Assembly (NCBI GenBank): GCA_016217905.1
Contig: JACRFL010000013.1
Span: 3,184 to 67,183 of the forward strand
Source of the DNA: Candidatus Kaiserbacteria bacterium
GTDB lineage: Bacteria; Patescibacteriota; Minisyncoccia; Phycocordibacterales; Phycocordibacteraceae
Direction of reading: 5' to 3'
DNA length: 64,000 bases
Shown here: in pieces, positions 616 to 18,973 of the stretch
Position numbering within the stretch: position 1 is the stretch's first letter
How the letters are laid out: each line of letters opens with the position of its first letter
Translations under genes and position numbers: made by a program
Notes under the pieces: generated by a model
Told to the model about the DNA's origin: nothing
Seen by the model: only the letters and a program-made list of their open reading frames with translations
The model's database searches: none

Positions 616-1791
616 GTGACGGTTATGAGCGTACTTTTTTGGGTGAATATTATCGCACTTCTCTTTTCCTTCTTCGTCGTTGGAGCTGTTCTCGGCGCGC
701 TCTTCTCCAAGCCGATACGCGATAAGCTCGCCGGCCTCTTGCGCCTCAAGGAGCTTCGACGCTTCCTTCTTCTCGACCGGTCTCTCCGCAATCCAATCCT
801 CAAGCCCGGGACGCACCCGTGGACGGCCGAGGCGGTCATGAATCCGGCAGCGGCCATCCTCGACGGTCGCACATATCTCATATATCGCGCTATCGGCATA
901 GACGGCGTCTCGCGGCTCGGTCACGCGAGCAGTCCAGATGGCATCGCCTTCGACCGGCGCCTTCCCTATCCGGTCTACGTCGCGAGGAATCCGCACAATC
1001 CCGCGACGCATCTGCGACGCTATTCTCCCGTTTTGTATCCCTCGGGCGGCAGCTGGGGCGGGTGCGAAGACCCGCGCATGGTGGTCATTGAGGGGCGCGT
1101 GTACGTTACATTCAATATGTTCGAGAATTGGAAACTCCGCGTTGCGGCCATAGAAATGGACGTGGATGACTTTCTCGCCGAGCGCTTTACCGCCTGGGAG
1201 GGGCCGACCATACTCTCGCATAGCGACCGGGACAAGAACTGGGTGCTCTTCCCCGAGAAGATCGGCGGGCAGTTCGCCGTCCTTCACAGCATCATCGGCG
1301 ACGATGAATATCACGTACGCATCGAATACGTTGACGACCTCGCAACCCTGGCCACGCGGAAGTTCGCGAGCCCCGACCCGCAGAGGGTCCCCGATACGCC
1401 CGTTGCGTGGCACGTCCACACGCGAAGCGCCGGACCGCCGCCCCTCAAGACCGAGAGGGGGTGGCTCGTCCTCTATCACGCCAACGACGCGAAAGAGGGA
1501 CACCGCTATAAGCTCGGCTCGATGCTCTTAGACCTCACTGAACCGACCAGGGTGCTCTATCGCTCTGCGGCGCCCATTCTCTCTCCGGATGAGCCGTACG
1601 AGAACCACGGCAAGCCCGGCATCGTCTACGCCTGCGGCGCGACCGTCCAGGGCGGAAAACTCTTTGTATACTATGGCGGGGCGGACAAGGTCATCTGCGT
1701 CGCGACCGCGCCGCTTGACGCCTTTCTTGACGCGCTCGTCGCGGGCAGCCAGCCCTCGCTCGCAGCGATGACGCCTGCGCGAACTATATAA
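616..1791 (+). CDS. Membrane-anchored GH130-family glycoside phosphorylase/hydrolase (start GTG 616 or ATG 625)
   Basis: N-terminal TM helix. GH130 hallmarks present: NPAAAILDGRTYLIYRAIG, GCEDPRMVVIEG, LFPEKIGGQFAVLHS, C-terminal VYYGGADKVICVATA. Confidence 0.75.
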   Translation: MTVMSVLFWVNIIALLFSFFVVGAVLGALFSKPIRDKLAGLLRLKELRRFLLLDRSLRNPILKPGTHPWTAEAVMNPAAAILDGRTYLIYRAIGIDGVSRLGHASSPDGIAFDRRLPYPVYVARNPHNPATHLRRYSPVLYPSGGSWGGCEDPRMVVIEGRVYVTFNMFENWKLRVAAIEMDVDDFLAERFTAWEGPTILSHSDRDKNWVLFPEKIGGQFAVLHSIIGDDEYHVRIEYVDDLATLATRKFASPDPQRVPDTPVAWHVHTRSAGPPPLKTERGWLVLYHANDAKEGHRYKLGSMLLDLTEPTRVLYRSAAPILSPDEPYENHGKPGIVYACGATVQGGKLFVYYGGADKVICVATAPLDAFLDALVAGSQPSLAAMTPARTI

Positions 1792-1793
1792 CC

Positions 1794-3710
1794 ATGTTCG
1801 TCATCCGCCGAGAGCCGCATAACCCGATCCTCGCGCCGCAGCGCGAGCGCCCGTGGGAGGCGCGCGCCACCTATAACCCTTCCGCCGTGCGTACCGAGGA
1901 TGGCGTACGCCTTTTCTATCGCGCATTCGGGGATCCGGACGCTCTCCAGACGCCCATGGCGGGGCTCTCGACTATCGGCACCGCCTTTGCCGAAGACGGC
2001 GTCCATTTCCATTCACGACAGCAGGTCATCGCTCCTGAGGAGCAGTGGGACATATTCGGCTGCGAGGATCCGCGCGTCACGTTCTTTGAGGGACGCTGGT
2101 ACTGCTTTTATACCGCGCTCGGCGGCTACCCTTTCGGCCCCGACAACATCAAGATCGCGGTCGCTATCGGGGATACGCCCGACAACTTTACCGAACGGCA
2201 CCTCATTACTCCCTTTAATGCAAAAGCGGCGACCCTGTTCCCCGAACGCATCGATGGCGATATCGTGTTACTCCTCACCGCGCACACCGATTGGACGAGC
2301 GAGCACCCGCGGCCGACGATCGCCCTTGCGCGCGCGAAACGGATGGAAGATTTCTTTGATCCAGACTATTGGAATCGGTGGCACGCAATACTCGCCGATC
2401 ATGCACTTCCTGAAATGCGCCGCGGTGATGATGATCATGTTGAAGTCGGCGCTTCTCCCCTTCTCACGCCGCACGGCTGGCTGCTCATCTACTCGTATAT
2501 CCAAAATTACTACGACGAACGCAAACGCATCTTTTCGATCGAAGCGGCGCTCCTCGATCGCGACGATCCACAAAAACTCATTTCGCGTACCGAATCAATA
2601 CTCGTGCCGCAGGAATTTTATGAAGCGTATGGCCTCGTGCCGAACATTGTCTTCCCCACAAGCGCGACGGTCGGTGAAGGCGGCCTCCTCGATATCTGGT
2701 ACGGCGCGGCCGACACCGTCTGCGCGAAGGCGAGCGTGAAGCTTCACGATCTCATGCGCGCGCTTGACCCCGATCGGCCGGCGCGCACTTTCATCCGCGC
2801 GCCGCAGAACCCTATTCTCACGGCGAGGGGAAAAGGCTTTGAAAGCAGAGATGTGTTTAATGCCGCCGCCATCGACCTTAACGGCTCGGTCTACATTCTC
2901 TATCGCGCTATGGATCAGGCGGACACCTCGACCATCGGACTCGCCGTCTCGTCTGACGGCATCGCCATTGACGAACGCTTATCCGAGCCGATATACGTGC
3001 CGCGCGCTGATTTCGAAGCGAAGCGCGGAAATCCTGCGGGCAATTCCGGCTGCGAGGATCCGCGCATCGTGCGCATCGGCGACATGCTCCACATGACTTA
3101 CACCGCCTACGATGGCGTCCACTCGCCCGCCGGCGCGATCTCGTAGATAAGCGTGAGTGACTTTCTTGCACGCCGATGGCAAATGTGGAGCGCGCCGTTT
3201 TTGCTGACGCCCGACAATGTCGACGACAAAGACCTTGCGCTCCTGCCTGAAAAAATCGGCGCAAACTATCTTCTCTATCATCGCGTGAACAATCAAATCT
3301 GCGCCGATCTCCTACCCGACCTCGCCTCGGGCAAGCGGGTGAGCCGCTGTATCGAGGTGATTGGCCCCAGGCGCGGCATGTGGGACGGAGAGAAGGTCGG
3401 CAGTGCAGCCCCTCCCCTCAAGATCGGAGACAAATGGTTGATGATCTATCACGGCGTCTCGCGCCACGCCACCTACCGTCTCGGTGCCGCGCTGCTTGGA
3501 GCGAATGGTACGACGGTTCTTGCGCGCACCGCCGATCCGATCTTCGAACCGCTTGAAGACTATGAAAAGAGGGGCGAGATTGCGAACGTCGTCTTCTCCT
3601 GCGGCGCTGTCGTTCGCGACGATATGCTCTTTCTCTACTACGGCGCCGCCGACAAGGTCATCGGCGTCGCGACCGCGTCGCTCGCGCACATTCTCGATGC
3701 GCTTTCATAA
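1794..3710 (+). CDS. Tandem double-GH130-domain protein interrupted by an in-frame TAG at 3144-3146 (ORFs 1794-3146 and 3153-3710 are one reading frame)
   Basis: Domain A (1794 to about 2760) is a complete GH130 unit (GCEDPRVTFFEG ... IWYGAADTVCAKAS). Domain B starts near 2780 (NPILTARG ... GCEDPRIVRIG ... TYTAY) and continues in the same frame after the TAG (LLPEKIGANYLLYHR ... LFLYYGAADKVIGVATA). The TAG falls in a variable position when aligned to the upstream paralog. Confidence 0.6.
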
Positions 3711-7482: not shown

Positions 7483-10224
7483 TTAATAATTCACCTCGAT
7501 CTTCCCCTTATTAGTCGTAAGATCGATGACAGCTAATCCCGGTAAGATTTTCTTGATCTCTCTTTCACTCTTATCTTCTTCGCTCTTTACCTCTTCCTCA
7601 ATCCTTGTCACGTTCTTCTTCGCATCGTAATGACCCTCGATCTTCAGAGTGCCCACTGTTGTTTTTTCTTCAAGCTCTTTAATGGCTTCGGTTTTGTCTG
7701 TGGACCACTCATATTTTAACATCGTCTTAGGGAGCAGTTCCGCAGATATGCCGCTGTATCGGAGCTCTTGGATTTCCAATTTGAGTTCGTGTTTTCCTTG
7801 ATTGAGTTTCTTGAAGACGATCTGCAGTGTGTTGCCGGCTTCGTCGGCAATGGTGGTGCTCGTGGCTGTTGTTAGGACAGTGGTACTGGAGAGATTATCA
7901 GTCCCGATAATCTTAAATTTTTGCGATGCCGGATCGAAAGTCAGGACTGCTTCCGGCGGTGTGATGTCGAACACAATCGTCTTTCCGATTTCCGACTTGA
8001 ACGAGAAGTCGGTCGTGCCATTCCCATCATAGTCGAGAAGAAGAGGTGAGGCGTTTTGGAGGGTGCCGTCGATAAATGTCATAGTCGCTTTGGTGCTTGT
8101 TGCAGACGGGATGGCGGAGAGGGTGCTTGAGGCGATAATGGTATTGCTCCCGTCTATTTCTTGCATATCAAGCGTGAATGAGCCTGTGGCGTAGCCGTCA
8201 AGGTTGAGGGTGAGAGGAGTGTTCTTGGGAACGGTGATCACTTGAACTTCGCCGTAGCGCTTAAAGCGGCCGCCGGGGATGGTGGAAGTGGCAGCATTAA
8301 CGACGTTGCCGAGGTTATCGGTGGCAGAGAGATTGAGAGGCGAGTGGAGAAGGAAGCGGAGACGTTTGTCGGCAACTGCGTCGGTGGCAGGTTGGGTGGT
8401 GAAAATAAATGCCAGTGGTGTTGTTGAGGTGGAATTGGTGAGAATGTTTTGAACCAGCGTGCGGAGTTCGGGGATTTCGAGGATGTCGGCGTGCTTGCGC
8501 GGGACATTTCCATTAAGCCACCATTTATTATAATCCTCCAAATTCACCCAGTACTTCCCCGCTGTCGAAGCAGTCGTTGTCCACAGTGCGCTCGGAACGA
8601 GTACCGTGCCATCTCCTTCCACAACCTCTTTGGGGCTGTAGGTGATTGCCGGAGAGACGGTGCAGGTGCGCACATCTGACATATCACTGCAATACGTTTT
8701 CCTCCCTTCCTGGTATTCAATCGTCGCAAGGGTATCCTCTCCCCACCCGGCGATTTCGTAGAGCTGCACTCCCTGCGGAGGCGCCCACGTATCAAGAGCA
8801 TTATGAACCGCTTCCGCTTTGGAAAGAAGTACCGCATTCCCTACACTCGGGTAGATGAGGTCGCTTGGTGATGATGAAGCGAGACGTCACGCGTCGGCAA
8901 TGAAGTTTTTAAGTTGCGCTCCGTCATGAATCGTACTGCCATAACGCGCGCGGAATGCGGCGAGAAAATCTGAATCATCAAACTTCACGACCGGATTATC
9001 GACATAGGTGAAATAGTTTGCCGACGGGAGAAGGTTGTACGCACTTGGCATATTTGCTGTAAGCGTGCGAGCGGTTTCGGGAGAAAGGAAAACAGAAAGC
9101 CAATCCTTGGGCAATCCCTGTTCGTATCCGTGAAGAATCGCGCTAATCGCTTGCGGCGTTCCCGCCTGCGGCACGGCAATAAAAATGATCTTGTCGATGA
9201 GTTTGGCGGCTTCCGTATCGACGAGCTTCTGGATAAGCGCTTTGGTCATGAGTCCGCCGTTACTGTGCGCGACGATGGTCACCTTGCCCGTCTTCGAGCT
9301 TTTAGCCAGTCGGCGGAGCTCTTGACTGATATAGGGCGACGAAGTCGCCCTAAGGTCGCCGGAATAGTAGATGCGGCCGTCGGGAATGGGAACGGGCACC
9401 ACCAGACTCGTGGTAACGACGTGCCCGGATCCATCGTAGGCGGTGATGGTAATTTTAATTGAGGCGGCGATACTGAGAGCGTTCGACGGACTGTCGTTAA
9501 GAATAAATGGCACACGAGTGAATGAGCCATCGACCGAGGAAGCGATCGCTGTTGTGAGCAAATTTTTGCCATAGTCAATTCCACCGCTGGAACCAAAAAT
9601 CGGATTCCCTAGTGCGTCCCATAACGTTTCCCTGATCTGATATATGGTTAAAACGCTACCGGTGCCGTCCGATAACCCGCTCAAATACATAACGTCGCCT
9701 TTTTGGGGCGGCACGACTGAGAATGAAATGTCAGTGAGCGAAATCGTCGGCGGAACGTTGTCGATTATTATCTTCGTGCTACCCGTGGCAACATTCCCCA
9801 CCGCGTCAGTGGCTATCACCGAGATGGTCTTAAGACCATCGGGAACATCCGCACCGATAGTTAGCGGCCAGAATTTAAAAAAATAATCCGGGTAATAATC
9901 GGCACCATTGATATAAAAATGATACGGATTATTTCCCCCCGATAAAGGCGTAGTGGTCGGGCTTAAGAAACCTATCTGTGAAAGATCGGCTGAGATGGTC
10001 GGTACCCCTTGCCAGCTTTGCACGTTAATTGTAATCTGCTGGTTCGCGTCACCCGCTTTAAGTGTGGTTTGATACATTCCGTATCCCAAAGTCGAAATCA
10101 TCGGCAGGTCTCCAATTCTGACTTGAGCCACGTACAGTGGTGAACTCGCCTGAACTAAGGACGGAAAAATAAAAAACACGAGCGAAAAGAAAAACGGCCA
10201 AAAAACTTGTGCACGGGTGTGCAT
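7483..10224 (-). CDS. Giant secreted alpha/beta-hydrolase (lipase/PGAP1-like) domain protein; ORFs 8887-10224 and 7483-8769 are joined in frame across a TGA at 8887-8889
   Basis: N-terminal signal peptide (MHTRAQVFWPFFFSLVFFIFPSLVQASS). Lipase-type nucleophile elbow VTIVAHSNGGLMTKAL. The frame is continuous from the TGA to the downstream ORF (…FIADA*RLASSSPSDLIYPSVGNAVLL…GVQLYEIAGW…) with no independent ATG or RBS for the second ORF. Atypically low GC. Confidence 0.55.
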
Positions 10225-13146: not shown

Positions 13147-14133
13147 CTATCGTTTTGCCGCCTCCGGAGGAAGACCCGGGAGCGGGCGTCGAACCGCCCC
13201 CACTGGACTGTTCGTCGAACCGCCTGCTTGCGCCAACAAGGGCACCGTGAACCGGCGCTCAACGCTTATCGTCGGCGGCGAGGCCCGAGAGATGACGCGG
13301 TATACGTACGTCTCTCCCGGCGTCAGACCGGTGAGTAAGAAAGAATGATTCGTTACTTTCGTCGTGTCTTCGGGAGTGGCGAACGGGTAGCCAAAATTCG
13401 GAGGTATCAGGACCAGAGCGTAGGGGCCGCCGGAGACCGGGCCATAGACGACCTGGCTGGTCGAGAGAAGATTTGTTTCCCACGTTATCGTGGCTAGTCC
13501 GGACTGGCCCACGTTCGATATGTCGAGGGCTTTTTCGTTGAATATGAAGAGACTGTTCCCAATCGATCCCCCGCCTCCTCCTCCGCCAGAACCAAGAATA
13601 GTCCCACCGCCCGGCGGCGTTCCACCTCCTCCGCCGCCTTCGCCTCCTACGACCGTGTTGCCGCAGCGGGTGGTACCCCCGTTGAACCCGACGCATACGT
13701 CGAAGCCGAGCGTCTTTCCTTGATACGAATTATCGCTTGAATCGATGAAGGAAACGTTGTACGTGAACGTCTTTGATTCTCCGTTTCCAATCGCACCGAG
13801 AGGGACTTCACCGGCGGTCGAGAGGAAATTCGCAAGAGAGTCGTCGAAGAGTGTTCCGCTGTTCCCGGTTATAGAGAGATGCAGAAGGGCGCTGAAGTTG
13901 CCGGCATCAAAAACATTAATGGCTTCGGTCAAGACGTTTTGTGTCGCGCCGGAATTATTGGTGACCGTAACGGTGCCGGCCGTCGAGTCGAGCGGAAGAA
14001 AATTCGATTTGTTGAACAGCGGATCCGGGACGAACTGGACGCCAAGCGGCGCCTGTGCCAAGGCAACGCCGGCGAAGCCCGTCAGAGAGAGGGCGACGAC
14101 CGGCAGTATCGAGATTTTAAGAAAGTTCTTCAT
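13147..14133 (-). CDS. Secreted Gly-rich protein with C-terminal FN3-like domain (true start at MKNFLK; tracker Arg-rich extension rejected)
   Basis: Signal peptide MKNFLKISILPVVALSLTGFAGVALAQA. Poly-Gly linkers GGEGGGGGGTPPGGGTILGSGGGGGGGS. C-terminal beta-sandwich-like block (ATITWETN ... LTPGETYVYRV). The start lies 4 nt after the stop of the upstream LTD gene. Confidence 0.65.
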   Translation of the reverse strand: MKNFLKISILPVVALSLTGFAGVALAQAPLGVQFVPDPLFNKSNFLPLDSTAGTVTVTNNSGATQNVLTEAINVFDAGNFSALLHLSITGNSGTLFDDSLANFLSTAGEVPLGAIGNGESKTFTYNVSFIDSSDNSYQGKTLGFDVCVGFNGGTTRCGNTVVGGEGGGGGGTPPGGGTILGSGGGGGGGSIGNSLFIFNEKALDISNVGQSGLATITWETNLLSTSQVVYGPVSGGPYALVLIPPNFGYPFATPEDTTKVTNHSFLLTGLTPGETYVYRVISRASPPTISVERRFTVPLLAQAGGSTNSPVGAVRRPLPGLPPEAAKR

Positions 14134-14137
14134 ACGT

Positions 14138-16135
14138 TTATTCGGCCGGGGTCGCCTCCGTCGGAGCGCTCTCGACAACTGCCGGAGCGCTCTCCGCCAC
14201 CACTGCCGCCGGCTCCGCTGGAGCGACTGCGGGCTCGGGGATGGCTGGCTCGACCGGCGTTTCCACGGCCGCTTCCGGCTCCGGAGAGAGAATGTCCTCT
14301 TCACGTGTGACGGCCGGCTCGACCGCCGCCGGCTGATCGGGAGCGGCCGTCTCCGCGGGAGCGGTCTCTTGAGACGTTCCCTCTGTCGAGATAGTCGTTT
14401 CAGACGCCACGATCTCGGTCTCCTCGGACGCACCTTCCTCGACCGGCAGCGGCGCCACGACGTTCTCCGGCCCGATGAAGAGGGGGAACGGATCATAGAT
14501 TCGGCCGCTCACGCTGCCAGAATTGAGCATCGGATTTTCCGGACCGATGGCGACGAGATGGATCCAGATGTAGCCGAGGAATCCGGACGGCACCGTCCAG
14601 GTAAACGCGCCGTCGTTTCCAGTAGTTTCGACTATCGTGTGCGTCGTGTCACCCAGACTTATTTTTCCGTCGTGGTTTACGTCCTTCACGTAGTAGATGC
14701 CGATGTCGAGGTCGCCGTCGGGGCCGTTGTTATTCGTCGCCGTCCACTTGATCTCGTAACTGTGCGTCCAGTACCACGTGTACGAGCCTCCCTCGTCCGG
14801 GTAGACGAGATCGATCGAAGGCGGCACGAGTTCTTTCCAATCGGAGGGCGCGTCGGTGTCGTAACCGGAAGGTACTCGAGCAAGGACGTTGCCCTCGGCG
14901 ACATTTGCCGCCCCGGGATCCCAGACGTTCGGATTGTAATTCGTCCATCCGGTGTCGGGGGTGCCCCAGTTCATCTGGTCGACGATAATCCTGTCGGGAC
15001 GTTTGAGGACAAGCATGTCGGCGTCGTTATCCAAACCGCCCCCGATTTTCGAATGTATGTTGATTTCGGTCACCTCGCTCGGCAGATACCAGTACGCGGG
15101 CAGGCCGCTCGAAACGGTCGTTGAGGTGGCGGTGGTTGACGTGGCAACGATGACCGCATATTTCTGCGCGGGAATGAGGAGTGTCGTCGGCAGGGTGTCA
15201 CACGAGGTGTTGTCGCAAATCTGCCATCCGGAAATATCCAAAGGCACGTTTGTCTGATTGTAGATCTCCACCCATTCGTTCGTACCCTCCGCACCGCGCT
15301 CCGGCGTTTTCACGTTGTAGTAGATCTTGTTGATCCGGAATCCCCACGAAGCGAGATGGTTTTTTACTTTTTCCGTATCGTTAAATCCGCCACCCTCGTA
15401 GCTCGGGTAGTCGTGCCGCGTTTGCCAGCCGTTGTAATCGATGTCGAAGTCGCAGGTGCGGTTTTGGAGATTGCTGGTCCCCGCCGTGTAGGCGAATTCC
15501 CACGGGTCGAGCGCGGTTGTCGTGGCGGTGAGGAGCCCCGTAAGAGGACCGTGATACATCTGGGTGCCCCCGCGCGTCGCGGTAACGTCAAGCCCCGAGC
15601 AGAAATCGGCATCGCCGGTAAAGTTGGTCGAGGTGGCGAAGTATTGAAACGGATTGCTCGCTTGCGGGTCGATCGCAACCGTCTTTTTCGTAACATCTCC
15701 GGGCGGCATCGACACGGCCGTACTCGTCGCCTGCCAGCCGGAAGTTGTCAGCGAGAAATCGACCGAACCCGCCCGGAAGGCATTCTCGGTCGAGCTCTCG
15801 ATATCGTTGTAGTATCCCCTTGTACTGCCGAGGCCGGTGATGCCGACGCTGTTAAGGCCGATCATGAGCGTGACGGCGAGCGCTTTAAGCGACAGCCGCG
15901 GCGTCGCCCTTATAAAAAACGGAGAGAGGACGCTCTTGCGCCTGTTCGCCCGCGCCGCGCGCGGCGCGCACGCGGCGCGCGGGCGCAGATCGAGCACATG
16001 CGCAGACGACGCGACGCGACGCGCCTTCCTCCTGGCGACCCTTCTCACCGGCACGGAAACACGCGCAGCGACAGTCGCTTTTTCTTTTTTCCGGGGAGTC
16101 TTCTTTATCGCTCCCGTTTTAATATGTACCGCCAT
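14138..16135 (-). CDS. Lamin-tail-domain (LTD) protein with SipW-cognate-like signal region and Pro/Glu/Ala-rich C-terminal tail (start uncertain: 16135 or internal MIGLNS)
   Basis: N-terminal K/R-rich segment then TM (LKALAVTLMIGLNSVGITGLG). This is followed by GYYNDIESSTENAFRAGSVDFSLT, resembling the TasA/camelysin SipW-cognate motif. LTD signature GTNEWVEIYNQTNVPLDISGWQI ... IPAQKYAVIVA. C-terminal low-complexity PEPEAAVETPVEPAIPEPAVAPAEPAAV. Confidence 0.65.
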   Translation of the reverse strand: MAVHIKTGAIKKTPRKKEKATVAARVSVPVRRVARRKARRVASSAHVLDLRPRAACAPRAARANRRKSVLSPFFIRATPRLSLKALAVTLMIGLNSVGITGLGSTRGYYNDIESSTENAFRAGSVDFSLTTSGWQATSTAVSMPPGDVTKKTVAIDPQASNPFQYFATSTNFTGDADFCSGLDVTATRGGTQMYHGPLTGLLTATTTALDPWEFAYTAGTSNLQNRTCDFDIDYNGWQTRHDYPSYEGGGFNDTEKVKNHLASWGFRINKIYYNVKTPERGAEGTNEWVEIYNQTNVPLDISGWQICDNTSCDTLPTTLLIPAQKYAVIVATSTTATSTTVSSGLPAYWYLPSEVTEINIHSKIGGGLDNDADMLVLKRPDRIIVDQMNWGTPDTGWTNYNPNVWDPGAANVAEGNVLARVPSGYDTDAPSDWKELVPPSIDLVYPDEGGSYTWYWTHSYEIKWTATNNNGPDGDLDIGIYYVKDVNHDGKISLGDTTHTIVETTGNDGAFTWTVPSGFLGYIWIHLVAIGPENPMLNSGSVSGRIYDPFPLFIGPENVVAPLPVEEGASEETEIVASETTISTEGTSQETAPAETAAPDQPAAVEPAVTREEDILSPEPEAAVETPVEPAIPEPAVAPAEPAAVVAESAPAVVESAPTEATPAE

Positions 16136-16158
16136 ATATCGGTGTGGAGGTCAGACCT

Positions 16159-16704
16159 TCATAGCGCGGCAGAATCACCGAGAGGATCTTCTCCTTTCGG
16201 CCGCTTCATCTTCCGCACCTCCCTCCGGATATTCTGCGCTTCGTCGAAGACGACGATGACAGCCGGCACGCCGATGAGAAGAACGAATCCGAACGGCTTT
16301 TTCGCGAAGTCGAGCAGGTAGCCGAGATACGGGACCGAGAAGAGCACCTTCCCGATTACCTCGCTTTGCCGCACCAGCTGCGGATCGGAATCTTCGTTCG
16401 CGTCTCCCTTCGTCGTGTAGTAGAAGACGCCGCCCCTCACCTCGTCAGAGACGATGCGATGGGTCGTCGGGACTTGCGTCTTCGTGTCCGGCCCGAACAT
16501 GATGACGTCTCCCACCGCGTACTTCCCGAGAGGCTTGACCACCGTGAGCGCGCCCGTCTTGATGGTCGGCTCCATTGAGCCCGACTGAACTATTTTCACC
16601 TCGATATTCCCCGGTATCGGCACCAGGCTCACCACGAGGAGCGCGCCAAGCGCAAGGACGGCGCCGACGAGGACGTAATATGCGGTTTTGAAGAGTGTGT
16701 GCAT
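16159..16704 (-). CDS. sipW: Signal peptidase I, SipW/archaeal-eukaryotic type (S26B)
   Basis: N-terminal TM then SGSMEPTIKTGALTVV catalytic-Ser block typical of SipW/Sec11-type peptidases. Sits between the TasA-like genes and the LTD gene. Confidence 0.8.
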   Translation of the reverse strand: MHTLFKTAYYVLVGAVLALGALLVVSLVPIPGNIEVKIVQSGSMEPTIKTGALTVVKPLGKYAVGDVIMFGPDTKTQVPTTHRIVSDEVRGGVFYYTTKGDANEDSDPQLVRQSEVIGKVLFSVPYLGYLLDFAKKPFGFVLLIGVPAVIVVFDEAQNIRREVRKMKRPKGEDPLGDSAAL

Positions 16705-16798: not shown

Positions 16799-18127
16799 TT
16801 ATTCAGGAGTGTAGGGCGGACGACTCGCAATACTCGTGCACCTGAAGCCAGAGTTGCTCCTTGTTTGCTCTGCGTACGCCGTCAAAGACGCCGAGAATGA
16901 ATCCGACTGCGCAATGTTACCCATTCCAGAACCGTTGCAGCCGAATGCGCTGCCTGGAGTAGCGGTGAGCGTTCCTGCACACCATACAAGACCGATATTC
17001 TTGGTAGTGGTGGCGGTGAGGAATTGACCATTGCTGGGATCCATACTCATGATGCTGGTGAGCGATGAGAGCGGTCCGACGCCGCCGAGAGGAGTCTCGC
17101 CCACGTCATAGAGACCATTCCCGTTGGTATCTCCCCAGGTGAATACATTGAGGAAGTTGGATAACTCGCCTTTTCCAGTTGGATTACCAACCCCGTTCGC
17201 GTCACCCGCTGCTATTTCAGGAGCGAGTGGTTGTGCCGGGTTCTCTTGGTCATCTTTGTCGCCCACGATAAGGCATGAGTAGGCATCGTTGCTCGACACA
17301 TGAAGCGATATTTCATTTGTACCCCAGTCAGCCGGCTTTACATCTCCAAAGTTGAAGAATGTATCTCCTTGGCCAAGGTCCTTTTCCGTCCAAAGCCGGC
17401 AGACCTGCTGGAAGGCAGAATCTGCTTTACACTGCGCCGGATCACGATGAATATTCAGCTTGAAGAGAAGTCCAGCCGGATTCCCTGAAGAGCCTCCGCC
17501 GGCAGACATGTTACGAACAACTATGTCAAGCGTGTTCTGTCCGTTCACCATCGCTCCCATGAAGGCGGCCTCTTGAGCGCCAGTCAAGGAAACAGCCGGA
17601 TTATAGTTGAACTCGAGAGGGAGCTTATCGACAATAGTTGTTCCGTTGAGGATAATCTTGTACCCGTTGTCAGCCGCGAGAGCGAGATCTAAGTTCACGC
17701 TCACGACAGAGCCGTTCCACTGGAACTTGTTCTCGAATGTGTACTCTGCGTTATTGGTCGTATCGTTCAACGTTGTCGGATCAGTCGCCCAGATCCACTG
17801 CGCCGGAGCGAGAGCGGCTTCGCTCTGCCAGGCCGGATGTGGGCTGCTCACGTCAACAGCCGGAATGGGGAAAGGACCCTGATTTGAGGCTCCCGCGCTT
17901 GCTGCCACGACCTTTGTTGCTGTAGAGCTGTACACATTCACACTGCACGTCTCACAGTCTACGCCATTGTAGGTCTGCTTCGTGTGATCCACCTTGAGGT
18001 CAATGGAACCCGCGGTGAAGATGTTGCCCGTCGAGGTCTCGGTGTCAGCGTAGAACGCGATGGTCCCGCCGACCGCGAGAGCCGCGACGACCGCTATCGT
18101 CCCAGCGCTAAGAAGAATTTTATTCAT
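16799..18127 (-). CDS. TasA/camelysin (CalY)-family protein with SipW-cognate class signal peptide
   Basis: N-terminus MNKILLSAGTIAVVAALAVGGTIAFYADTETSTGNIFTAGSIDLKVD matches the TIGR04088-type SipW-cognate signal (GT.A.F.D.E.S.GN.FTAG..DL). Confidence 0.8.
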   Translation of the reverse strand: MNKILLSAGTIAVVAALAVGGTIAFYADTETSTGNIFTAGSIDLKVDHTKQTYNGVDCETCSVNVYSSTATKVVAASAGASNQGPFPIPAVDVSSPHPAWQSEAALAPAQWIWATDPTTLNDTTNNAEYTFENKFQWNGSVVSVNLDLALAADNGYKIILNGTTIVDKLPLEFNYNPAVSLTGAQEAAFMGAMVNGQNTLDIVVRNMSAGGGSSGNPAGLLFKLNIHRDPAQCKADSAFQQVCRLWTEKDLGQGDTFFNFGDVKPADWGTNEISLHVSSNDAYSCLIVGDKDDQENPAQPLAPEIAAGDANGVGNPTGKGELSNFLNVFTWGDTNGNGLYDVGETPLGGVGPLSSLTSIMSMDPSNGQFLTATTTKNIGLVWCAGTLTATPGSAFGCNGSGMGNIAQSDSFSASLTAYAEQTRSNSGFRCTSIASRPPYTPE

Positions 18128-18148: not shown

Positions 18149-18973
18149 CTATGCCGACCTCGGTGAACAAAGGAATCCTGGATTGTTTCGAGATTGCACT
18201 GCACGGAAGCTCACATCAGCAGTCAAACTGTCGGTCTGCGTGATGTTGTTTACCTGGGAACCATTGCAGACGATACCTCCAGTTGAATTGGCCGGGGTTC
18301 TTGGGCTGGTCGTACCCATCCCATCCTGCTCAAGAGGAGCTGCCGAAATAGCGCCAAAACACCACGCCTTACCGATGAAGCGCTCTGAACCGCCCGGCAA
18401 TGGACCTCCTTCATCCGTCCAGATGTTCGTTTGAGAGTCAGCGAGGGCAACCGACGATGTCGCTGAGGCCGAGGCAAGCGTTCCCGAAGGGAGCGGCGTT
18501 TCGTTGTTCTCTAGAACATTGTCTCCGTCGTCAGCCCACCACATGAAGTTTACTGCCTGTGCCAATTCTCCGTTACCGGCACCATCTGATACATCACCAT
18601 CCTGCCTTTCCGGTTCCGTAATACCGTTATCATCGTTACTCGTCAGCTTTACGTCAGCACAAACGTAGGCATCGTTGTTGTTTACGTGGAGACTGATAGT
18701 GTCCTCCCCTCGATCGCCTGGCTTAAGATCAAGAAAATTAAAGAATTTCTCAATCGTCAAATCCTTTAATTCCCAAGTCGTGTCTTGATTCAGAACACCG
18801 TTATAATAACTTTCGTTATCAACCTTCAGATCAATCGCGCCGGCGGTGAAGGTGTTGCCGGTTGATGTCTCCGTGTCCGAGAAGAACGCCCCTGTCGCGC
18901 CTAAAGTGGCCGCAACGACGAACACAATCACTCCCAGACTCAAGAGAATCCTTTTGTTAAGAAGTGCTGTCAT
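18149..18973 (-). CDS. TasA/camelysin (CalY)-family protein with SipW-cognate class signal peptide (start at MTALLNKR, 18973)
   Basis: MTALLNKRILLSLGVIVFVVAATLGATGAFFSDTETSTGNTFTAGAIDLKVD. The same conserved signal block as the neighbouring paralog. The tracker start 19060 adds an Arg-rich extension that was rejected. Confidence 0.78.
   Translation of the reverse strand: MTALLNKRILLSLGVIVFVVAATLGATGAFFSDTETSTGNTFTAGAIDLKVDNESYYNGVLNQDTTWELKDLTIEKFFNFLDLKPGDRGEDTISLHVNNNDAYVCADVKLTSNDDNGITEPERQDGDVSDGAGNGELAQAVNFMWWADDGDNVLENNETPLPSGTLASASATSSVALADSQTNIWTDEGGPLPGGSERFIGKAWCFGAISAAPLEQDGMGTTSPRTPANSTGGIVCNGSQVNNITQTDSLTADVSFRAVQSRNNPGFLCSPRSA

Follow-up and report, generated by a model that had tools for sequence, protein, structure and literature searches.

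In Bacillus subtilis, TasA polymerises by inserting an N-terminal strand, residues 28-38, into the next subunit, and the N terminus of the accessory protein TapA resembles this donor strand and has been proposed to supply the first one, nucleating the fibres (PMC9674648). TapA itself carries a 43-residue signal, an essential N terminus of 14 residues, an immunoglobulin (Ig) domain with a disulfide and a dispensable, unstructured C-terminal region; the stop codon of its gene overlaps the start of sipW, and the ratio of TapA to TasA is roughly 1:100 (PMC10151520). More recent work on archaeal, Bacillota and Chloroflexota loci has predicted accessory proteins for TasA-superfamily fibres, namely tip, minor-subunit and anchor proteins that would be incorporated by donor-strand complementation (10.64898/2026.01.04.697558), so the general kind of system is already known. 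The lamin tail domain (LTD) has been noted in diverse bacterial hydrolases, and a role in bringing proteins to membranes, or to structures associated with them, has been proposed for it (PMC6085458). Here we describe a locus in which the two come together. It lies on a 64,000-nucleotide stretch of contig JACRFL010000013.1 from a Candidatus Kaiserbacteria bacterium (positions 3,184 to 67,183; hereafter the window), where a gene for an LTD protein is the fourth of five co-directional genes on the minus strand, preceded by two TasA-like genes and a SipW-type signal peptidase gene and followed by an Fn3-like gene. A preliminary description of this DNA had placed the LTD gene inside a SipW/TasA gene row, and that placement holds, with the peptidase gene ending 23 nt upstream of the LTD gene start and the two TasA-like genes beyond it. 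We propose, with a probability of about 60%, that the LTD protein is a SipW-processed, TapA-like accessory subunit that plugs into a TasA-like fibre by donor-strand complementation. The observations underneath this proposal are the domain architecture, a homologous N terminus, a conserved cleavage site, the synteny and the way in which co-encoded subunits are mimicked.

Point by point, the LTD protein repeats the logic of TapA (YqxM) without being a TapA homolog. Its gene adjoins sipW, and overlaps it in related loci; its signal sequence is unusually long; its predicted mature N terminus is similar to the major subunit's donor strand and leads into a beta-sandwich with a conserved Cys pair; its C-terminal region is long, acidic and unstructured; and the gene is present in single copy beside the major-subunit genes (PMC10151520, PMC9674648). 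The differences are equally plain: the gene order is tasA-tasA-sipW-X here and tapA-sipW-tasA there, the N-terminal domain belongs to the TasA family whereas that of TapA is a V-set Ig domain, and the LTD protein adds an LTD, an Fn3/Ig-like domain and a conserved 84-residue basic leader, in a host from the candidate phyla radiation (CPR). The AbpX, AbpA/AbpB and Tafi loci likewise combine major subunits, a dedicated signal peptidase I and accessory proteins, but their anchors use SLH or LPXTG, and no LTD, acidic tail or long basic leader has been reported for any of them, nor any such locus in Patescibacteria (10.64898/2026.01.04.697558). The Shewanella nuclease ExeM is also a secreted protein with a PF00932 domain, but the window protein has no hydrolase domain and its LTD is internal, behind a fibre-subunit module. 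Our literature search for papers linking TasA with LTDs, or TasA with Patescibacteria/CPR, found none of relevance, and we regard as new the payload of LTD, Fn3 and polyanionic tail, the long basic leader and its conservation, the modular exchange at the N terminus and the CPR distribution.

One body of evidence lies around the predicted signal-peptidase site. The only strongly hydrophobic segment of the LTD protein, residues 85-102, is followed by a site that is close to invariant among 112 full-length homologs, with Thr at -3 in 101 of 110 and Ala, Gly or Ser at -1 in 109 of 111, and the TasA-like paralogs have the same T-x-A↓F layout (the arrow marks the cleavage position). Directly past the site the homologs share the consensus [YF][YF]xDxE.S..N.F.AG..DF.L, and the corresponding motif of the window protein, YYNDIESSTENAFRAGSVDFSL, is identical to the 442-residue paralog at 11 of 22 residues. 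The preliminary description had reported that the protein repeats a conserved block of the TasA paralogs; the block is there, although its spacing is D-x-E-S-S-x-x-N-x-F-x-A-G-S-x-D, with two residues between S-S and N and not one. It had also implied that the block follows a cleavage site, and we find it after T105-R-G107↓Y108 and not within the hydrophobic segment. When the family profile of the N-domain (residues 108-267) was compared by hhalign with the two co-encoded TasA-like proteins, the probabilities were 94.6% and 90.7%, and with an alignment built from 14 relatives of the paralogs 96% (E=3.8e-9); each of the three alignments takes in the Thr of the cleavage site, the motif and the L-x-P-G-D strand that follows. 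The TIGR04088 model scored at or above its cut-off, at 19.9-23.3 bits, in the N termini of four of five homologs tested, and homolog P0003 is named by JGI with this model. The only match of the N-domain profile in the PDB is the mature N terminus of B. subtilis TasA (5of1), a weak one at E=0.76. In a monomer AlphaFold2 (AF2) model the motif segment, the first ~20 residues, is disordered, with a predicted local distance difference test (pLDDT) below 50, and the core is confident. These comparisons support the view that, as far as sequence can tell, the motif is the counterpart of the TasA donor strand and does more than mark the protein for SipW.

The domain that follows the motif points the same way. 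AF2 modelled residues 108-267 as nine strands (pLDDT 81, predicted template-modelling score 0.75), and the N-domain profile, searched against 1.84 billion cluster representatives, gave 1549 matches, 975 of them at E<=1e-10. Among 64 distant relatives sampled from these, 52 also bear an LTD and 26 match Pfam Peptidase_M73 on the N-domain region (best E 2.6e-10). Because distant relatives match Peptidase_M73 there, the N-domain is, on this sequence evidence, a divergent module of the TasA/camelysin family. It has in common with the major subunits of that family (PF12389) a SipW-type signal, an N terminus of the form F/Y-x-D-x-E-x-S-x-x-N-x-F-x-A-G-x-x-D and the L-x-P-G-D strand that comes next. 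Unlike mature TasA, which is ~230 residues long, it measures ~160 residues and is fused to ~400 residues of non-TasA payload.

The arrangement is conserved well beyond this genome. The LTD protein belongs to a family of more than 150 close members, and all those with names come from Parcubacteria-type lineages (Kaiser-, Pace-, Zambryski-, Wolfe-, Nomura-, Campbell- and Nealsonbacteria, and CPR3), with a conserved five-gene cassette of two or three TasA-like genes, sipW, the LTD fusion gene and the Fn3 gene in dozens of Parcubacteria genomes. Among species-representative genomes, 32 loci had an LTD gene with the N-domain and enough upstream sequence. SipW was encoded directly upstream of the LTD gene in 28 (29 on inspection), TasA-like genes lay further upstream in 31 and the Fn3 gene downstream in 28, and the order of TasA-like genes, sipW, LTD gene and Fn3 gene recurs in about 28 of the 32 Patescibacteria loci. 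LTD-only relatives from Chloroflexota and other groups are mostly without such a SipW/TasA-like context (7/36). The mimicry of a co-encoded subunit's N terminus by the LTD protein recurs in about 30 loci, and a variant cassette (L084, and also L013 and L071), which is the most informative case, repeats it with other sequences. There the LTD-Fn3-acidic-tail protein has a different N-terminal module and reads SMFA↓AFESHIINVTATIEN after its hydrophobic segment, while the two putative subunits encoded upstream, which have no Pfam family, read PMFA↓AFEAHVINVTATIEN, and a small S24/S26 peptidase is encoded directly upstream. The variant LTD proteins continue from this AFEAHVINVTA-type N terminus into a helical module in place of the TasA-like domain. 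Since the N terminus is swapped in the variant cassette, the payload bears the N terminus of whichever subunit family adjoins. The donor-strand correspondence, the TasA-family N-domain and this copying in the variant cassette all lend support to an accessory, tip or anchor component of the fibre, which the preliminary description had suggested. As a separate observation, the putative subunits of the variant (L084 4303..6974, with counterparts in L013 and L071) form a second putative fibre-subunit family of 230-268 residues without a Pfam match, with the mature N terminus AFEAHV[IV]NVTATIEN and with a small S24/S26 peptidase of its own.

Ahead of the hydrophobic segment the LTD protein carries a basic leader, which had been put at about 60 residues and is indeed present, at about 84. 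It contains the blocks IKK, VPVRRVARR, VLDLR (residues 47-51) and, just before the hydrophobic segment, SPFF. The leader of the LTD protein aligns over its full length with the leaders of homologs in other genomes, with z-scores against shuffles of 12.7 (P0034), 8.0 (P0079) and 7.6 (P0002), and the aligned leaders have in common IKK, VP[VI]R[RK][VI]AR, V[LI]DLR and SP.F; pentamers of the V[LI]DLR type turn up in 15 of 47 long leaders, the expected number being 0.67. Leader length ranges from 0 to 146 residues across the homologs (median 34), and the long leaders, found in 62 of 112, are consistently basic at +0.23 charge per residue. In the related loci L001-L003 the sipW stop overlaps the LTD start with leaders of 76, 6 and 78 residues; given this overlap whatever the leader length, there is never a long non-coding gap. 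The preliminary description had left the choice between a start at 16135 and an internal Met. The internal candidate was rejected, as M91 falls within the h-region and the alignment with homologs begins at the first residue of the leader, and the sequence comparisons thus support 16135 as the correct start and the leader as translated. The leader with its V[LI]DLR block might serve as a signal for targeting. Within the leader coding region, at 15947..15987, a CG-rich simple repeat (periods 2-18) encodes the RPRAACAPRAARA stretch; it was the only repeat found, and it could be a source of variation in leader length.

The payload behind the N-domain consists of two further beta domains and a tail. 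The identification of a lamin tail domain, made earlier from the letters alone, stands: the PF00932 match clears its cut-off, and an AF2 model of residues 262-560 (pLDDT 80.7) has the lamin A/C Ig-fold as its best Foldseek match (6ghd_F, E=5.2e-5; 1ifr, TM-score (TMt) 0.62). The accompanying statement that LTDs are rare in bacteria does not stand: a single scan of limited extent already yielded 259 confirmed relatives among species-representative genomes, Chloroflexota included (see also PMC6085458). Residues 392-555 had no Pfam match and are the most conserved part of the family (YPDE..TWYW, GPENPMLN); Foldseek relates their beta-sandwich to the tandem Fn3/Ig modules of CbhA Fn3, RbmA and S-layer proteins. 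The middle beta-rich region, for which structure prediction had been suggested, is thus resolved by AF2 into the beta-sandwich of residues 108-267, the lamin-tail Ig-fold and an Fn3/Ig-like domain. The acidic Pro-rich tail also exists, at ~110 residues where ~90 had been estimated. It is 21-23% Ala, 20-21% Glu and 15-16% Pro, depending on where the boundary is drawn, with a net charge of -24 over the 113 residues past 552, and its end carries no C-terminal transmembrane segment or sorting motif. All 112 full-length homologs have a net-negative tail (-12 to -126) without sequence conservation, and we found no tandem DNA repeats in the tail coding region. The presence of the tail in 112/112, the near-invariant -3/-1 site and leader z-scores of 8-13 put these features beyond chance. 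A search of the whole LTD protein sequence against the PDB gave no match, and a sub-threshold Pfam match to DUF7239 (E=0.066) was ignored.

We envisage the following course of events. After export, SipW would cut behind Gly107, and the freed N-terminal strand, about residues 108-118 and the counterpart of TasA residues 28-38, would insert into the acceptor groove of a TasA-like subunit, by which the LTD-Fn3-tail payload would become covalently continuous with the fibre. By analogy with TapA, the payload would sit at one end of the fibre, nucleating it, anchoring it or both, and we think the cell-proximal end likeliest because TapA is a donor-strand-bearing, low-copy protein encoded beside sipW. 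At that end the LTD and the polyanionic tail might make contact with the envelope or with the surroundings. Within the fibre model, the chief alternative is the position of a tip or lateral adhesin. We also entertain, more tentatively and with the odds against it, a bolder version in which the LTD-Fn3-polyanionic tail is a portable payload that Patescibacteria carry on different donor-strand fibres (of the TasA or the AFEAHVINVTA type) by exchanging nothing but the N-terminal strand and module, acts as the host- or surface-contacting adhesin of these episymbionts, and has in its basic leader, with the V[LI]DLR and related blocks, a cytoplasmic targeting or regulatory element that sets where and when the fibre starts.

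Why might such an arrangement matter? Patescibacteria/CPR are ultrasmall and live for the most part fixed to other cells, and of the structures that they attach with, little besides type IV pili is known. From the cassette and the spread of the N-domain we predict that these organisms make donor-strand fibres of the TasA type and have a dedicated accessory subunit for them. N-terminal mimicry in two unrelated subunit families provides a simple sequence rule for spotting fibre accessory proteins, and also a testable model of strand insertion for residues 108-118, and a bacterial lamin tail domain is given a concrete structural context.

Several observations weigh against an accessory subunit of this kind. 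The LTD protein has no sequence relation to TapA: TIGR04087 (YqxM_for_SipW) is not matched by the window protein and reaches at best 11.3 bits (E=0.2; cut-off 80) in homolog N termini. The window protein is also under the TIGR04088 cut-off (16.3 bits, E=0.0084, on its isolated N terminus, against 19) and has no match of its own to Pfam Peptidase_M73 (PF12389) at E<=0.1, and the homology between the N-domain and the paralogs is confined to the first ~54 columns. Foldseek of the N-domain against the PDB did not retrieve TasA; the best matches were Ig-like or chaperone-usher pilins (PsaA, AggA, FimA, FimH), so weak, at E>=1e-3 and TM-scores below 0.5, that they serve as a hint only. Finally, leaders that serve only to be removed do not usually run to 84 conserved residues.

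Such points leave some room for other explanations. The LTD protein could be a stand-alone SipW-dependent secreted or surface protein, for example an adhesin or matrix binder, that stays outside the fibre and uses its N-terminal block for recognition or export only. This would explain the common signal type and the linkage to the peptidase, and most LTD proteins of other bacteria are secreted or membrane-associated without being part of a fibre (PMC6085458), with LTD-only loci that do without SipW. Signal peptidases, however, read mainly the -3 and -1 positions, yet 15-22 residues past the site are conserved here, they match the co-encoded subunits in two unrelated subunit families, the same residues are the donor strand in TasA (PMC9674648), and what follows the motif is itself TasA-family; we consider a life outside the fibre rather unlikely. 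It is also conceivable, if improbable, that the signal is never cleaved and the protein is a type II signal-anchor membrane protein, with the basic leader as a cytoplasmic domain and a juxtamembrane TasA-like strand and domain that tether the base of the fibre to the membrane. The conserved leader blocks, unexpected in a discarded peptide, and the frequency of long leaders fit this idea, and a membrane anchor is known in TasA-superfamily loci (10.64898/2026.01.04.697558). Set against it are the near-invariant T-x-[GAS] site, which matches that of the cleaved paralogs, and the many homologs with leaders of only 0-9 residues, one of which, at 6 residues, abuts sipW directly, so the leader is dispensable for the core function. 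Conserved motifs within cleaved signal peptides moreover have precedents in YSIRK and ESPR. An enzyme or a nucleic-acid-binding factor, either a 'camelysin' metalloprotease or a binder of extracellular DNA like the LTD-bearing nucleases, is suggested by the Pfam family name Peptidase_M73 and by the LTD of the extracellular nuclease ExeM (PMC6085458). We think this very improbable: searches of Pfam, NCBIfam and the PDB gave no catalytic domain, TasA is a structural fibre protein, and the mature LTD protein is strongly acidic (isoelectric point 4.1), which argues against DNA binding.

Table 1. Coordinates of the LTD protein, its segments and the neighbouring cassette genes in the window. GA, Pfam gathering cut-off; pI, isoelectric point; ORF, open reading frame; ER, endoplasmic reticulum.
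Feature	Position	Strand	Basis
LTD protein, complete coding sequence, 665 residues, stop at 14138-14140	14138..16135	-	ORF list; NCBI identity; leader alignments; sipW abutting the gene in related loci
Basic N-terminal leader, residues 1-84, predicted cytoplasmic n-region	15884..16135	-	Net +22, pI 12
Hydrophobic h-region / single transmembrane segment, residues 85-102 (ALAVTLMIGLNSVGITGL), contains Met91	15830..15883	-	Top Kyte-Doolittle window 1.65; conserved in family alignment
c-region, residues 103-107, predicted signal-peptidase site G-S-T-R-G↓Y (T105 = -3, G107 = -1)	15815..15829	-	Homolog conservation
Donor-strand-like motif, residues 108-129, start of predicted mature protein	15749..15814	-	hhalign to paralogs; TIGR04088
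N-domain, beta-sandwich, residues 108-267, invariant Cys179 and Cys228	15335..15814	-	AF2; family profile; Pfam in relatives
Lamin tail domain, residues 268-391, invariant Cys307 and Cys312	14963..15334	-	Pfam PF00932 E=8.6e-11, 42.6 bits (GA 34.3)
Linker and second Fn3/Ig-like beta-sandwich, residues 392-555	14471..14962	-	AF2 pLDDT ~80-90, all-beta; conservation profile
Acidic A/E/P/V-rich low-complexity tail, residues 556-665, pI 4.05	14141..14470	-	Composition
SipW-type (archaeal/ER-type) signal peptidase I	16159..16704	-	TIGR02228 E=1.3e-28, 99.8 bits (cut-off 51.85)
TasA-like putative fibre subunit, 442 residues, SipW-cognate signal	16799..18127	-	Pfam Peptidase_M73 23.6 bits (GA 22.5); TIGR04088 22.3 bits (cut-off 19)
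TasA-like putative fibre subunit, 274 residues from the NCBI start	18149..18973	-	Pfam Peptidase_M73 28.9 bits; TIGR04088 20.9 bits
Downstream cassette gene, 328 residues: Sec-type signal (VALA↓QA), beta-rich N-domain, poly-Gly linker, Fn3-like Pur_ac_phosph_N domain	13147..14133	-	Pfam

The features of the LTD protein and of its neighbours are collected in Table 1. An identical 665-residue protein is listed in NCBI as 'lamin tail domain-containing protein [Candidatus Kaiserbacteria bacterium]'. The SipW-type peptidase also matches the SipW model NF046067 (E=1.4e-30), below the equivalog cut-off. The shorter TasA-like protein has more than 3800 homologs, some of them named 'TasA family protein'; its reading frame stays open up to 19060, and the start that gives 274 residues is backed by NCBI and by the homologs. 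Most of its close homologs are ~450 residues long with an extra PF19403 domain, and the 274-residue paralog is on that account a shortened version in this genome. The Fn3-like gene begins 4 nt past the LTD stop. We considered its product as a TasA-like subunit without a donor strand and rejected the idea, as hhalign put the probability at 19% for the N-domain profile and at 0.6% for that of the TasA paralogs. Scans for promoters and terminators gave counts not clearly above those in shuffled sequence, and nothing from them was used.

A few observations lie further from the LTD gene itself. Between 13100 and 16300 both strands hold many long overlapping reading frames in other frames, for example 13745..15124(+) and 15356..16321(+), which we do not regard as genes because they are the Arg/Pro-rich run-ons typical of DNA of ~60% GC. 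On the metagenome contig L003, which bears the same cassette, homologs of the curli secretion proteins CsgG, CsgF and CsgE are encoded at 1202..2924, ~5 kb upstream on the opposite strand, a neighbourhood that would not be expected beside a TasA-type system. In the window, a few kb downstream of the cassette and on the same strand, a secreted protein of 445 residues (8887..10224, minus strand) has a signal peptide and an LCAT/alpha-beta-hydrolase-like C-terminal domain, as well as a weak, sub-threshold Pfam match to the bacterial Ig-like family Big_13.

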